This document shows positions 40,768 through 48,650 of a stretch of 64,000 nucleotides of DNA, piece after piece; positions within the stretch are counted from its first letter, which is position 1, and every line of letters begins with the position of its first letter. Origin of the DNA: Mustelus asterias (taxonomy: Eukaryota). Location: positions 77,190,001 through 77,254,000 of the forward strand of contig NC_135811.1 in the NCBI RefSeq assembly GCF_964213995.1, read 5' to 3'. The notes below the pieces were generated by a model. It made no database searches, was not told the origin of the DNA, and saw only the letters and a program-made list of their open reading frames with translations. A program made the translations under genes and the position numbers.

Positions 40768-41252
40768 GCTGAAAGCAAATTATTGCTTATGCTGGAATCT
40801 GAAACAAAAACAGAAAATGGTGGAAAATCTCAGCAGGTCTGACAGCATCTGTGGGGAGAGAATAGAGCCAACGTTTCGAGTCCAGATGACCCTTCGTCAG
40901 AGCTGAGAACAAAGAGAATCAGCAGAGATTTATACAATGAGGGTGGGATTGAATGGGACAAAGGGAATGTAAATGAGGATACAGAAGGCAGAGAAGGTGC
41001 TAAAAATGTCCATTAAGTGATCAGAATGTGTGAATGGCAGAACAGAGGTGCAGATAGTTAAAGGACTGCCCAAGGAATGTGGCAGTTGCCCTGAAGGGGG
41101 GTAAAGTGGGGGGGAGGGGCAAGAAGGAGAGCTGGAATGGTAAGTGGAAAAATACAAGTGAGAAAAAGGGATGATAAAATGGATGAATGAGATGAAACAA
41201 AATGAAATTTTTTAAAAATGGAAATGGAGTGAAGGTGGAGGGGGGAGATCAG
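40768..41252 (-). mobile_element. Penelope-like element 3' portion nested in Copia gag
   Basis: TSD gtgcaa (40762-40767 and 41253-41258); contains a hammerhead motif. Confidence 0.75.
40866..40904 (-). ncRNA. Minimal type I hammerhead ribozyme
   Basis: Minus strand reads agct CTGACGA a gggtc atctg gactc GAAAC GTT ggct: canonical core, stem II, palindromic AACGTT stem III, stem I agct/ggct. Confidence 0.7.
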
Positions 41253-43836
41253 GTGCAAAGTATTTTCAGAACTAAAGGCTCATCATTTGAACAGTGAGGA
41301 AGGTTTGGATAATCTCGTAAAATTTATAGACAAAATATTTCAGAAAGATGATATGTTAAATGCACATGAGGACTTTGATAAATTTAGAAGATGGACATTT
41401 ATTCCATAAATAGAATTTAACTGGGTGATTTCCAAGTTTGCAGAAATTCTATTTGGAGATCCCTAATTCAATGTTTGCTTTCAAATTGTTCGATTGTTAA
41501 AGTATTGAATATGGATAGACTTCTGGTCTTGACTGGAGATACATTCTCGGAAGGCAATATGTTTTTGGAACAGATGTCTGGAAGATTAAAAAGAATTCTG
41601 GAGAAAATCATTTCCAGCCACTTTCATGACACTAGTGGGACCTTCAGCAGTAGCACAACAGATGGAGGATTCAATGCTGGCAGCATTTCAAGACCATTCA
41701 GATGTACAACACATGCATCAGTATGAAATAAGATCCACAAACAAAAGGATGGAGGATAGAGATCCTTTTGGTAGCTCCACAAATGATGGAAATTGGGTAG
41801 CAATAACAGGAGATTGAACCCCAAGAATGACCACAGAATGTGCAACAGGTGTTTCAGATGTGACTCATAAGGTCATTGTGTGATGATTTATCCAAAATGA
41901 AGTAACATGGTTTTTGAAATGACACCTGACATGGAAGGTTCAGAAGGAGAGATGATGATAGCTGATCTGGCAGAATGAACTTCAGTGATCACCAGAAACT
42001 GTACTCGGTAATGGGTGTTCTAGTTGTCGATTCATTAAATTGTGCTGTGTTAGACAGTGGCTGCACATCCACAGTACATGGGTTAGATTGGTTAAAGTAT
42101 AACCTGGATTTCCTAAATAGTAAAGACTGAATTAAGCTTAAGGAATATGGAAGTTCTCCTGACATCTGCCCTGACATGGGGAGTCCATACAAGCAATTCC
42201 CTTCAAATGGTTGGAGGGGTGGGGTGGTGGTGGGAGGGGATGGTAGTTACAGTCCCTATTAAGTAGTTTAGAGGAGAAATCCAAAAATACCTTTAGTGAT
42301 ATGAAAGGAATGATGATTAGTTCATTTTTTCCTGAGCGTTTAAATGCTCCGCATGCAGGGAGAAGGGCAGTTATCAAGACTGAAGTTTCAGAGAAAATTC
42401 AGGAAGTCTTATTGCACTGCATAAGGCCATCAGAAATAGGTTTTAATCCACAGGACATGATATATTACAAAGGAAATGGGCAGAAAGAGTGGAGAGGCCC
42501 AGGTAAGGTTATAGGCAGTAATAGAAAAGCAGTAATTTTACAAAACAGTGATCAAACTATTAGAGCGTATTCCTTGAGGCTAACTGGCACTGATTATACA
42601 TTTACAGAATCTGAACATGTAGTAGAAAGTGAAGAGGCACCATGTACTTCACAGATACATATGTTGGACAATTACGAGGAACATATAATGGCAGATAAAT
42701 TGCTGACTGAACATTGATCAAGTGATAAGGATAAAGCTGTTCATCACAAAGGACAACTACCCAAAGTTGGCATCAGAGTAACATATACACCAGTGGAGCC
42801 AGTGTGAGTTCTGAAAGTGGACTGGGAAGTGATCACGGCCCTAGAAAAAGATCACGGACTTTCAAAAGGGACTCTGATTGTAGGAGCAGGAGATTGTGTA
42901 GCAGTAGTCCAGAAACAGAGAGAAAGGCAAGTGGCGGTCATAGTCTGACAAGAGCCAGGGCCATAGAAGAGGCTAGGAATGCTACCAGAAGAAGAAACCT
43001 GTAATGATGCACTTTCACAGACTTTAATCGAAACACAAAAGGATTTATCAATAAGAAGAACCGTACAGCAATACAGCAGCCATATGGTTGACCTAGTCCC
43101 CTACATGTCTCCCAAGTAGGAGAGGACTCCATCCCCTAGGGTGATTACCAAGTCTGTGTCCCAGTTGGTTGCCTAAGCCAGGTGACCCTTTACTCTGCTG
43201 TGTTATCCTTAAAAGGACAATCACCACAAATCACCACATCCTTCCCCCTTTAATTCCTTCATACAATCTTCAATAACTAAATCCTACATTTTAGCTAAAT
43301 ATTATATGCATCGGACAATTATAAATTGAGTCTTTGAGGGGTTTTTCTGTTTCTTGTAGAGCAGTGTAATTGTGTAGTCTGAGATGTTTTCAGAAGATCA
43401 ACATTACCAGGAACTGCAATAACAGGTATCTCCTCTCACACAGGCAGACCATCACTACTTGCTTCCATGGAGACATCAGTTTTGTCTATAGCAGGTCAAT
43501 CAGGTTGTTTGGTGCTTACGGGTTCAAAACATTTCTTGATGGCAATGCTGACTGCTGGAGCCCCTCTCAACTCCTCAAGTGATCCACATGTTTGCGAGTG
43601 ATCTGTCCCTCCATGTCCACTTGGTGCAACAGGAGTCCAGTCTTTCATTGCCCTCCACATGGGGTCTTTCATTGCCCTCCTTCTGGGGTTTTCGTTTTCC
43701 CACCTTCCAAACAATAATTCCAGGGATCCAACTTGATCCACTCCTGAGCTTTCACACTATGACACCATGTCATATAATGTACTTAATATTGCTTTTTTTT
43801 AATTGTTCTTCTGTTTCTGGTTCTTATCATGCGATT

Positions 43837-44668
43837 AAGAACAAAGAACAAAGAAAATTACAGCACAGGAACAGGCCCTTCCGCCCTCCAAGCCTGCACC
43901 GCCCATGCTGCCCGACTGAACTAAAACCCCCTACCCTTTCAGGGACCATATCCCTCTATTCCCATCCTATTCATGTATTTGTCAAGACACCCCTTAAAAG
44001 TCACTACTGTATCCGCTTCCACTACCTCCCCCGGCAACGAGTTCCAGGCACCCACTACTCTCTGTGTACAAAATCTGCCTCGTACATCTCCTTTAAACCT
44101 TGCCCCTCGCACCTTAAACCTGTGCCCCCTAGTAATTGGCTCTTCCACCCAGGGAAAAAGCTTCTGACTATCCACTCTGTCCATGCCTCTCATAATCTTG
44201 TAGACTTCTATCAGGTCGCCCCTCAACAAACCAAGTGAGAACAAACCAAGTTTCTCCAACCTCTTCTCATAGCTAATGCCCTCCATACCAGACAACATCT
44301 TGGTAAATCTTTTCTGTACCTTCTCCAAAGCCTCCACATCCTTCTGGTAGTGCGGCGACCAGAATTGAACACTATATTCAAAGTGCGGCCTAACTAAGGT
44401 TCTATAAAGCTGCAACATGACTTGCCAATTTTTAAACTCAATGCCCCAGCCAATGAAGGCAAGCATGCCGTATGCCTTCTTGACTACCTTCTCCACCTGC
44501 ATTGCCACTTTCAGTGACCTGTGCACCTGTACACCCAGATCCCTTTGCCGATCAATATTCTTAAGGGTTCTGCCATTTACTGTATATTTCCTATCAGTAT
44601 TAGACCTTCCAAAATGCATTACCTCACATTTGTCCGGATTAAATTCCATCTGCCATCTCTCCGCCCAA
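43837..44668 (-). mobile_element. Young CR1 LINE 3' fragment nested in the LTR element
   Basis: ORF 43939-44688 WAERWQMEFNPDKCEVMHFG...; tail repeats ttctttg. Confidence 0.95.
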
Positions 44669-45130
44669 GTTTCTTCTCTTTCCAGCATTTCAATTCAGCA
44701 TCTTTTTCATTGACCATTTTATCATATTGCTCCTTGTGCTTTTACATTTGCATGACCACTTCAGCAATCTTGTTCTCACACGTAATTTCAGTTTCTTTCT
44801 CCGAATTGCTGATTCTGCTGTCAATTTCAATGTTTTTACCTCTTCAGTTAATTTCTCATTGCTAATCCTCCTTCTTCAAGCTCTTGTTCTCCCAATCCAA
44901 TTATTCACTGGACTTGCTCTTATTTTCTAGTTGCTTTTTCACAGGGTTCAGCTTACTATCCATCGTCTCATTAAGTTCTCCTTCTTCTTAACTTCATTTT
45001 GTAAATGTTTGCAACTTTTTAAACAGTTTGCTGTCAGTCATTTCATCTTGTTAGTTTTAGTATCTTTTCCAGAGCTTTAATTCTTTTTGCTGATTCCTAT
45101 TTATGTTCAATAGTTCCTAATTTCTTTTGA
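44669..45130 (-). pseudogene. SYCP1: Intronless SYCP1 (synaptonemal complex protein 1) coiled-coil fragment captured in the LTR element
   Basis: Manual translation with frameshifts: CKHLQNEVKKKENLM / TMDSKLNPVKKQLENKSKSSE*LDWENKSLKK / RISNEKLTEEVKTLKLTAESAI / EKETEITCENKIAEVVMQM*KHKEQYDKMVNEKDAELK. Collinear with recalled mammalian SYCP1 EVLKKEKQMKILENKCNNLKKQIENKSKNIEELHQENKALKK...KISEEKLLGEVEKAK...QKEIDLRCQHKIAEMVALMEKHKHQYDKIVEERDSEL. Confidence 0.8.
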
Positions 45131-45339
45131 AGTCATTAATTTCTGCATTTCTTCTGAGGGGAATCCATCATGTTCTTACTGGACATATACATTTCACAAA
45201 TGGAATCTTCATTTCTACTTGTCTTAACTTCAACCAAACTCTTTTGGTTTCACTGTTGGTCAGGTCTGACTCTGATGAAATATTAACTTGTTTCCATTCT
45301 GCAATTCTGTTGTTGCCCTTTCATTGCATTCCTTTTGGG

Positions 45340-45625
45340 GTTGTTCATTACCCTCCACGTGGGGTCTTTCATTGCCCTCCACGTGGGGTCTTTCATTGCG
45401 CTCCATGTGGGGTCTTTCATTACCCTCCACGTGGGGTCTTTCATTGCCCTCCATGTGGGGTCTTTCATTACCCTCCATGTGGGGTCTTTCATTGCCCTGC
45501 ACGTGGGGTCTTTCATTGCCCTCCATGTGGGGTCTTTCATTGCCCTCCATGTGGGGTCTTTCATTGCCCTCCACGTGGGGTCTTTCATTGCCATCCATGT
45601 GGGGTCTTTCATTGCCCCCCTTCTG
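45340..45625. repeat. 24-bp minisatellite (ccctccatgtggggtctttcattg), about 11 units; encodes (RAMKDPTW)n on the minus strand
   Basis: Direct reading; degenerate units extend to about 45960 and recur at about 43640-43700. Confidence 0.95.
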
Positions 45626-47172
45626 GGGTCTTCTTTTTCCACCTTCCATGGTCTTCTATTGCCTCCTCTCTAAGGTTTCCTTTTGCCCTCTTTCTGGGTC
45701 TTTCATTGTTATCCTTCTGGAGTTTTTCATTACTCGCCATGTGGGGTCTTTCATTGCCCTTCTAGGGTCTTTTTGCCCACCATCTGGGGTCTTCTATTTC
45801 CTCCTTCCTGGTAGCTTTGTTGCCTCCTCTTTGAGGTCTTTCATCGTCTCTTCCTTGAAGTCTTTGTTGCTCCCTGTTGGAGGTCTTTGTTCCCTCCTCT
45901 GAAGTCTTCTGCTGCCTCTTCCTTCAGGCCTTCATTGCTTATGGTCTTTTTTGAGAGTTGTCCTCTATCTGGTGTCTTCTCCAATTTTACTCTCCACAGT
46001 CATTTGTTCCTTCTTGTGGTTGTCACTTTAAATGCATTGCCACATTAAATGCATTGCCCTTTAAGACTGTCACTCTCTTTACTTAGCTGTCAGCTTTCTC
46101 TCTGTATTTTTCCTGCACTTTTGGAGTTTTGGCAATCCTCTTTTTTTAACTTTTAAAACTTCTCCTTTTACTAAAGGAAAACCCTTTCAGTGATCTCTGG
46201 AATGTTTTTCTCCATTTGGAGAGTTCGGTTTTTTCCCTGCATTTGTTTTTCTTTGATGTGCCTTTTTTTGTCAACTTCACTTGGACACCCGGTGAGGTTC
46301 ATTTGGGGCCATTGTTATATTATAAAACTTGTTAAGTTCTTTTAAAATCTTCAGAACTTGAAGATCATCAGTGCAACGATTGCTGCTACAGAAACCCCAC
46401 AGGCTCTGCTCCAACATAAGGAGCGTCGCAATTTCAGCTTCTTGATTTTCCCGTGCTTCGGGAGATCTCACTGCAGCTCACTTGGGACATTGCCTTTATT
46501 TAAAGCACTACTTCCTGTATTCTCTTTGATGAAAAATACCTTTGCAGCTACTCGGTTTTTTTTTAACTTAAGTTCTATATTTTTTTAACTTAAAGCCACA
46601 GCTCTGCTTTCACAGGGCTATTTTCTCCTGTTTTTTTCTCTCCATACTTTTCTAAACTTTTGATTGTACTGGCCAATTCAGCTTTGTTCTACGTCTATCT
46701 CTTAGCCTCGCCAATGCGTTGAGCCTGGAACGCCTCACCTCCTCATCTACAATGTAAGTGGAGGAACGTTTCTGCATTTTGTTTACTTTTCTTGTAGATT
46801 CTGACCTGGGCTCCTGCCGTGCTCCATTGCCCACATACCTTAGAACTGTCCAGCGTTTCTGATTCTACATTTCTCAGGGTCTGGCAAGATCTCAGCATCT
46901 CAAATGGGCCCATTTTCCCAAAGAGAGGCATTCGGGTAAGCACCTTTTTTTCAGGCTTCAATTAAAACAGAATACCCACAGGTGTTGGGCCAAAGGCGGT
47001 GTCACGATAATTTTATCCTTGTTGCTAGATGTAATGATGCATTTTCACAGACTTCATTAGAAACACAAAAGGATTTATTAATAAGAATAACTGTACAGCA
47101 ATACAGCAGCCACATGTCTTCACCTAGTCCCCTATATGTCTCCTACCTAGGAGAGGACTTCATCTCACATGC

Positions 47173-48650
47173 ATGGTGGCACAGTGGTTAGCACTGCTGC
47201 CTTACAGCGCCAGGGACCCAGGTTCAACTCTAACCTTGGGTGACTGTCTGTGCGGAGTTTGCACATTTATGCCGTATCTGCGTGGGTTTCCTTTGGGTGC
47301 TCCGATTTCCTCCCATAGTCCACAGATATGCAGGTTAGGTGGATTGGCCATGCTAAATTGCCCCTTTGGGGCCTGATTCTCCCATCCCGACATACACTTT
47401 TTTTGCACGTTGCGTTGGGAGATGCGCGTGTTGGCCATTTTGCAGGATTCATGCACGTCTCCCACAGACAAAGAACAGGCGCAGTCGGGACCGTGCTGGA
47501 AACTGGCGGGATGACCAGCTAAGTGATTTAAATCTGTTTTAAATCTATTTTAAATGTCATTATCGGGCCCGATAGCATCTCCCAACCCCCCCAGGAGTAT
47601 TTCACTCCGGTGGGGTTTAGAGTAGCTCCCCACTTTCGGGGAACTAGTGGGAGACCCCGCTGGAGTGAAGGGGATCAATTGGGGCCCCCTAGGGGGTTGG
47701 GCGGAGGGGGGTGTTGGGCGGAGGGGGGTGGTGCCCCCCCGGACTTGGGCACCCTGACAGTGCCAGCCTGTACCCCTGGCAGTGCCCAAGGGGCAAAGTA
47801 CCCATGCCCAGGGGGCACCTTGGCACTGTCCACCAGGCATCGGGCAGTGCCAGGAGAGCGGGGCCTAGGGGTGGGGCCAGGGAGGCAGTGCCAAAGGGGT
47901 GGGGCCTATTGTGGGCAGGGCCTATGGGGTGAATGGTGGGGGTTGGGGTCCTGCTGCCAGTCTGCAAATAGGATCGGTCGGGGCTGGAGGGAGGCCAGAA
48001 ATCGGGACAAGCTGGATGGGGGGATGTTTGCCAGGGGGAGGCCTGCCTCCCGGGGGGGGAGGGGTCAGTGGAGGGGGGGTCTTCTGGGGGGATTGTCACT
48101 GCTGGAGATTGCCGTGCTCCGGGACGGGCGGGAGAGGGGGGTCGGAGCTGGCCCAGGAATTCTTGTGCGGGCCGCGATTGGCCAGCAATCGGGCTGTGGG
48201 GGTGTCCCGAGGGGCAGCAGTGCGGGTCCCGGGCTGGCCAGCGATCGAGCTGGCCAGAAAACTGCAGTCTGACAGTTCGGGGCCACTGCACATCCGGTGT
48301 GAATAGCCCCGCCCCCCCCCCCTCCCCCCCACTGCCCCCGAGCTTTTAATGATATCTACGATTGTGGCCTCTGCATTGCAGAGTGTGGGAGATTCTAGTC
48401 TGGACTCCCACTGAAAAAACAATCGTGAATTACACCATTATTCCCGCCAATTCAGAACTTGGAATTTTTTTGGAAGAATCGGACGCTTAGTGTCCAAAGG
48501 TGTGCAAGTTAGGTGGATTAGCCATGGTAAATGTGTGGGGTTACAGGGATAGGGTTGGGGTGGGAGTGAGCCTGGGAAAGCTACCCTTTCGGAGAGTCGG
48601 TGCAGACTTGATGGGCCGAATGGCCTCCTTCTGCACTGTTGGGATTTAAT
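47173..48650 (+). mobile_element. HE1-type SINE split by a TIR element
   Basis: SINE 47173-47367 resumes at 48487 (ttagtgtccaaagg). Confidence 0.85.
47368..48486. mobile_element. GC-rich non-autonomous DNA transposon (PIF/Harbinger-like)
   Basis: Degenerate TIRs ggggcctgattctccca / tggaagaatcggacgc; inserted at a TTA site of the SINE (flanks ttt/tta). Confidence 0.65.

Follow-up and report, generated by a model that had tools for sequence, protein, structure and literature searches.

A 64,000-nucleotide stretch of the genome of the shark Mustelus asterias (G000:C11:77,190,001-77,254,000, hereafter the window) contains a long terminal repeat (LTR) retroelement that carries sequence resembling the meiotic gene SYCP1, and the question raised by this locus is how such a gene came to travel in a retroelement. 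The element lies on the minus strand at 47164-43000 and comprises an A-rich body, a 24-bp minisatellite, the SYCP1-like stretch and, inside it, a fragment of a long interspersed nuclear element (LINE). Upon searching the 3.68-Gb genome, we found that the cargo of the family to which this element belongs is one full turn of a 925-nt circle of SYCP1 exons (e1 to e11) plus about 5 nt, and a circular SYCP1 RNA was likely the template of the capture.

The insert is derived from the host SYCP1 gene

The reading frames of the insert were translated with X at stop codons and scanned against Pfam. One of nine frames matched the SCP-1 family with an E value of 3.2e-10 and 39.2 bits, compared with a cut-off of 23. 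The best matches of the insert in the PDB were the human SYCP1 structures 6f63 and 4yto, and shark SYCP1 proteins matched it with E values down to 9e-24. In the window copy, parts of nine host exons (e1-e9) were found in collinear order and without intron sequence, at 79-92% identity. The SYCP1 origin and the collinear, intron-free blocks proposed in the original prediction were thus recovered; a generic coiled coil is ruled out by the Pfam match, the PDB matches and the mapping to host exons, and the SYCP1 identity of the insert is secure. In the alignment to 6f63, the insert retains the equivalents of C703, H717 and Y721, which had also been pointed out, and a stop precedes H717 by two codons; the numbering of these residues and the self-assembly of the alphaC-end at the chromosome axis are given as in the original prediction.

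A genome-wide Pfam search gave 57 matches, of which one, in the N-terminal part and on contig C25, lay in the host gene; 19 other fetched loci showed element sequence, and copies of the family yield many false SYCP1 matches in shark genomes. The host gene was defined from the 600 kb around the C25 match together with the mapping of shark SYCP1 proteins. It occupies G000:C25:45,530,000-46,030,000 (approximately 500 kb, with introns of up to 42 kb) and is present as a single copy in the 600 kb. In the region of the captured part, thirteen consecutive host exons are each bounded by AG/GT, share one frame and occur once; the captured exons e1-e11 total 925 nt, spread across 173 kb of the gene, and no second copy of them was found in the 600 kb of the host locus. 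The SYCP1 exon of the host genome was 89-96% identical to shark, ray and chimaera proteins. We also observed that one host exon, ending in QEQQ (L034:1498-1501; C25:46,023,392), appears to use a GC donor, and that the skate model P0001 continues into the intron at the same exon end. Additionally, the Mobula SYCP1 model P0007 has a gag-like domain (PF23055) at its end, after the coiled coil; this is probably a gene-model splice into a retroelement and, as far as seen, is unrelated to the SYCP1-carrying family.

The cargo is one turn of an exon circle

The fuller copies start inside e1, run on to e11 and then re-enter the start of e1, the donor site of e11 being joined to the upstream acceptor site of e1. 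The e11/e1 joint scored above both linear joints in every alignment printed and was exact in seven of the 15 measurable copies, in which both sides are anchored; six more copies have one anchor only. A length of 925 nt is not divisible by three, and the SYCP1 frame therefore meets a stop three codons past the joint. Among 98 partly overlapping loci, exons e1-e11 were each matched in 19-94, and the exons outside the circle (2,269 nt) had no match inside any element; the sole weak match of an outside exon was on the reverse strand, in a flank.

The two ends of the cargo almost coincide. In the 30 loci that bear segment X, the element sequence directly upstream of the capture, the SYCP1 part begins at circle position 80 in 21, at 82-87 in five and later in two, while two lack SYCP1. 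The ends of the capture cluster at circle position 83-85, and about 5 nt are present at both ends. One group of generation-1 copies (see below) starts later, at 96-106, beside the minisatellite. The original prediction had inferred capture via mRNA from the lack of introns; passage through RNA stands, but a plain linear mRNA order does not, since the exons are circularly permuted across a back-splice-type junction.

The circle was captured in two nested steps

Two generations of elements carry the circle. Generation 1 (20 regions) consists of a 300-bp LTR (LTR_A), a primer-binding site (PBS), a body, the circle, a short tail (tailA), a polypurine tract (PPT) and a second LTR_A; none of the 20 regions matched the LTR, gag tip or integrase tail of the window element (the B parts). 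Generation 2, the type found in the window, begins with LTR_B, a PBS complementary to tRNA-Ser(GCT) and about ten gag codons, followed by the generation-1 body and circle, and it continues with an internal LTR_A and 7 nt of PBS, the integrase tail, the PPT and LTR_B. Among loci L002-L030, B parts were found in 28/29 and the internal LTR_A in 23/29. Three of four loci matching the PBS were called as tRNA-Ser (gct).

Some helper-type B copies (L256-L258) lack SYCP1, and their match to the window stops at 46900 and resumes from about 43760. In L258, RNase H (PF17917, E 6e-5), H2C2 (PF17921, E 0.015) and rve (PF00665, E 1.2e-5) follow each other in the Gypsy order, at scores below the gathering thresholds; reverse transcriptase (RT) is missing from L258, which is a deleted copy, and no env was seen in the outer helper. 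The B/A junctions share 3-5 nt, as judged by eye. These structures revealed that a first LTR element captured the circle and that this element, along with one of its LTRs, later became part of a Gypsy-type LTR element; the latter is the source of the tip, the integrase tail and the outer LTRs. The gag tip (MPLFGK) was added only at this second capture.

A 45-nt deletion was found in 47/57 copies and is common to both generations, which suggests a single original capture. The short form is further marked by a 130/131-nt deletion (41/46 copies) and by a 230-nt deletion that removes the joint (present exactly in 19/25); generation 2 lacks about 40% of the circle. Segment X had no Pfam match and no protein match; in many copies it has a protein-like frame, and its junction with SYCP1 is in frame. 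A search for segment X joined directly to tailA gave 0 matches, a weak result from an exact-match pattern among diverged copies.

In generation 2 (window 43761-43798; L221-L240), we observed that 7 nt of PBS from the inner element itself stand after the inner LTR, and this element was therefore taken in permuted order, perhaps from a tandem array or from a reverse-transcription intermediate. An unrelated Gypsy-type insertion on C22 (L256:7110-10000 and L259:1-1160) has open frames of 763, 204 and 387 aa and is therefore much younger than the SYCP1-carrying family. Dense clusters of tRNA-Ser(GCT)-type 3' ends were also noted on the small contigs C85, C102, C103, C130 and C141.

Layout of the window copy

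The features of the window copy, in the order of the element, are as follows.

47030..47164, minus: final 134 nt of the 5' LTR (LTR_B) of the outer element, with 88% identity to 43000-43133; the remainder was not found within the window
47015..47029, minus: PBS of the outer element, decayed; better-kept copies are complementary to the 3' end of tRNA-Ser(GCT)
46900..46931, minus: first gag codons of the outer helper (MPLFGK...), 46900 being the limit of the match to L256-L258
45326..46893, minus: body of element A (generation 1), non-coding and decayed; 46893 is the point from which generation-1 copies match downward
45318-45793, minus: 24-bp minisatellite within the element A body
45153..45325, minus: segment X, directly upstream of the capture and followed by SYCP1 in 28/30 loci
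44667..45152, minus: SYCP1 circle from e1 position 80 to e9 position 65, shortened by inherited deletions of 45 nt and about 130 nt
43837..44666, minus: later LINE 3' fragment splitting the SYCP1 part
43815..43836, minus: end of the SYCP1 circle (e1 to about position 85), weak alone, aligned with copies L019 and L014
43761..43798, minus: end of the inner LTR (LTR_A) and first 7 nt of its own PBS, from the alignment to first-generation copy L177
43253..43760, minus: integrase C-terminal tail of the outer helper, matching helper L258 and interrupted by a minisatellite piece at 43640-43707
43239..43252, minus: PPT, from the sequence and from the equivalent location in other copies
43000..43238, minus: 3' LTR of the outer element (TG...CA), whose junction with the flank is also spanned by a contig of organism C
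47170..47373, plus: repeat abutting the truncated 5' LTR, outside the element (repeat families I1/I2), presumably of a type like a short interspersed nuclear element (SINE)

The two LTRs, PBS, PPT, MPLFGK and integrase tail that had been described from the sequence are all present, although the 5' LTR is reduced to its final 134 nt. The LINE insertion was likewise found; we take the fragment to be CR1-like from a motif, and Pfam gave no match. The Pfam scan of the window element also agreed that RT, RNase H and integrase cores are absent. Two boundaries have to be redrawn. The SYCP1 part had been placed at 44669-45130; it starts at 45152, and its last piece, at about 43836-43815, lies past the LINE. 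In the outer element, what is left of gag stops at about 46900, and the sequence onward belongs to a different, older element.

The e11/e1 joint of the window copy falls within the 230-nt deletion typical of its subfamily. Most of LTR_A is gone as well; the same loss is found in L014 and L019, which rules out the LINE insertion as its cause. An entire second PBS at 43761-43745 was also ruled out, as only 7 nt belong to a PBS and the rest is helper integrase. The truncated 5' LTR adjoins the SINE-like repeat, and no target-site duplication (TSD) is therefore readable for this copy. We also observed that the element is embedded in a decayed retroelement on the plus strand (41200-42999) with protease-like (DSG) and integrase-tail-like motifs, followed by coding-like sequence; from these motifs we assume a possibly Copia-like order, and Pfam gave no match.

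Family size, dispersal and age

Searching the genome with the SYCP1 stretch gave 932 first-look candidates, compared with 857 for the tail and 608 for segment X, none of which are copy numbers; 39 other scored matches were 80-84% identical. Among 225 non-host loci, 177 carry an SYCP1 piece, at 108 distinct sites, and no pair is more than 92% alike. The family therefore has at least 108 distinct copies and probably several hundred, dispersed over many contigs. In these copies the insert sits between two LTRs with PBS and PPT in place of the internal open reading frames, as expected for the non-autonomous LTR family that had been suggested. Both insert junctions run directly into element sequence, and there is no poly(A) tail or separate TSD around the insert; together with the multi-copy family, these junctions rule out a single SYCP1 retrocopy that landed in a dead element. 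TSD-like 5-mers matching at four or more of five positions flank 4/14 two-ended copies, compared with 8/182 mismatched pairs. Outside this genome, a 67-aa predicted protein from a 630-bp ENA contig (P0015) carries the short-form deletion junction, and the family is therefore present in other public data sets.

All copies in hand are old, and the window copy is dead. LTR pairs are 78-85% identical over alignments of at least 75 nt, and 88% identical in the window copy. The tree of 54 rows, from which rows with 300 or fewer aligned columns were excluded, is star-like, with a mean terminal branch of 0.13 and the host at 0.05 from the base. The SYCP1 part of the family is present in runs of organisms B and C. 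The organism C contig bridges the junction between flank and LTR of the window copy at about 90% identity, and this insertion therefore likely predates the split. An age of the order of 100 million years, based on the slow substitution rates that we assume for sharks, is uncertain.

The cargo decayed without detectable constraint

The original prediction had raised the possibility that a fusion of Gag tip, repeat and SYCP1 acts on the synaptonemal complex, with meiotic targeting or drive as its role. More broadly, the cargo may have been kept for a function, either as such a binding protein or as an RNA mimic of an essential meiotic gene that would make silencing costly. Some features would fit: the first shared deletion (45 nt) is in frame, segment X is in frame with SYCP1 at the 5' junction, the SYCP1 piece survived two generations, and the ratio of nonsynonymous to synonymous substitution rates (dN/dS) between long, generation-1 copies and the host is 0.82. 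The host branch, which is under constraint, contributes to that last value, however. In the SYCP1 frame, pairwise dN/dS was 1.04 among short copies (300 random pairs, 40 copies), 0.94 among long copies (153 pairs, 18 copies), 0.98 between long and short copies (300 random pairs) and 0.95 between short copies and the host; the values among copies resemble those of two control frames (0.87-1.12) and give no sign of purifying selection.

The structure of the copies also speaks against a functional product. In 10/10 copies examined, the frame that begins at the gag ATG runs for 5-62 codons; the second deletion is 130/131 nt long, the net lengths of the SYCP1 part are spread over all three frames, one position is a stop in 14/48 copies, and the large loss of circle sequence in generation 2 adds to this. 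The equivalents of C703, H717 and Y721 are kept at 0.78, 0.82 and 0.73, no better than the median site (0.81), and only 16% of copies retain the residue that aligns with H719. With the gag tip joined only at the second capture and the named residues at the background rate, a meiotic driver is not supported, and retention for any function is unlikely. The neutral alternative that had been offered, co-expression in germ cells, fits the decay; the SYCP1 piece was likely carried as a passenger, in a family that is mechanistically informative.

A probable circular template for the order and the ends

From the observed exon order, junctions, start and end points, nesting, dispersal and neutral decay, we infer the following course of events, which builds on the model of template switching for LTR capture in the part of PMC5131818 covered here. 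In meiotic cells, the host would back-splice e11 to e1, giving a 925-nt circle that would be packaged together with the RNA of LTR element A. RT would then switch onto the circle near position 85, copy one round and switch back at position 80, where it may leave the circle upon meeting RNA already cut by RNase H. In general retroviral biochemistry, RNase H cuts template that has already been copied. The chimera would spread in trans as generation 1 and gain the 45-nt deletion. Through a second template switch, the gag tip and the integrase tail of family B would come to flank the body of the chimera together with one LTR and 7 nt of PBS; the resulting generation 2, with two further deletions, may have reached several hundred sites before it decayed. 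In the introns flanking the circle, an inverted-repeat pair (about 2.3 kb, 82%) ranks fourth among 91 intron pairs; matches occur in 73/91 pairs, and this weak signal was not counted.

A linear template could also have carried the permuted order, through trans-splicing of two pre-mRNAs or splicing across a since-lost tandem duplication of the e1-e11 block. Either route likewise gives an exact donor/acceptor joint, and the Scyliorhinus canicula model P0006 has an internal repeat of a different exon-sized block. However, no duplicate exons are found in the present locus and no outside exons in any copy, and the coincidence of start and end within about 5 nt (about 1 in 100 if the two were independent, by our estimate) is left unexplained, which makes a linear template improbable. 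An extra backward jump of RT on ordinary linear SYCP1 mRNA is suggested by the likeness of the end of e11 to the end of the exon preceding e1 and by the multiple switches described for LTR capture in the sections of PMC5131818 covered, but it is very unlikely, as the predicted +4 shift was seen in 0/15 copies, a donor/acceptor pair is mimicked by just 17 (0.13%) of the 13,216 possible backward jumps that have 3 nt or more of homology, and the coincidence of start and end would be needed in addition.

Several observations count against a circular template and the history built on it. The host circle is predicted from DNA, by way of the genomic copies. The e11/e1 joint is inexact in eight of the 15 measurable copies, with deletions of 1-29 nt or one insertion, and it lies in a GA-rich patch with an ambiguity of 3-4 nt. 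L174 and L190 lack the 45-nt deletion yet have a later start (about 99-102), like copies having the deletion, and recombination or recurrent deletion is therefore needed. An autonomous donor A was not found by searches with tailA and LTR_A, the TSD match is poor (at most 2/5) in 6/14 copies, and the internal branches are so short (about 0.02 substitutions per site) that the selection test has low power on them.

With these points weighed, we lean towards reading the family as a molecular fossil, in which the RT of an LTR element would have copied a circle exactly once before RNase H forced it off. A single germ-line circle would then have given rise to several hundred selfish copies, carried along by two retrotransposons in turn, and the family would record a specific meiotic circular RNA (circRNA) that predates the divergence of at least two shark species. 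If true, this reading supplies the missing mechanism for circRNA retrotransposition, and hundreds of SYCP1-like sequences could feed a small-RNA conflict with an essential meiotic gene.

Comparison with known systems

The outer helper resembles Ty3/Gypsy elements in its RNase H, H2C2 and rve order (below Pfam cut-offs), its tRNA-Ser PBS and its 5-bp TSD-like flanks, and it differs in that the window copy keeps just about ten gag codons and the integrase tail. We presume that its gag belongs to a K02A2.6-like clade. The inner family A is an unclassified LTR element. No earlier report of an SYCP1-carrying LTR family was found in a literature search whose coverage left out most subscription journals.

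LTR-mediated retroposition by double template switch has been described in fly, mosquito, zebrafish, chicken and mammals, as set out in the part of PMC5131818 covered here. The retrocopies described there are similar to the shark family in that a partial, intron-free host piece stands in place of the internal open reading frames between two retained LTRs and in that further rounds of retroposition occur as a non-autonomous element. In contrast, the shark template is circularly permuted, and a second LTR family encloses its LTR chimera; the terms "circular", "circRNA" and "Rfwd2" do not occur in that main text. Maize Bs1 and HERV-K/FAM8A1, as cited there, also hold host gene pieces within an LTR element, whereas their cargo is linear mRNA and no back-splice junction is mentioned in the same portion.

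The closest precedent is the set of circRFWD2 pseudogenes of the mouse, with 33 high-confidence and nine low-confidence copies near LTR sequence (PMC4897178). The two systems share a non-colinear back-splice junction in genomic copies, the lack of poly(A), the multi-copy state and adjoining LTR sequence (MMERVK10C-int in the mouse). In the mouse, the LTR link is a flanking enrichment and the mechanism was called mysterious, which left open how circRNAs are copied back into genomes. The shark circle, in contrast, lies inside complete LTR-PBS-PPT elements as one turn plus about 5 nt, has a Gypsy-type outer helper, is present in at least 108 copies and was captured twice. This anatomy points to a concrete route from circRNA to genome, namely template switching in an LTR particle with one turn as cargo. 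It also indicates that a circRNA can found a repeat family, beyond a few pseudogenes, that LTR chimeras can be taken up whole by another family and that permuted captures could act as fossils of ancient germ-line circRNAs. What is new relative to the known systems is the scale, the single turn that makes up the cargo and the nesting of one capture in another.

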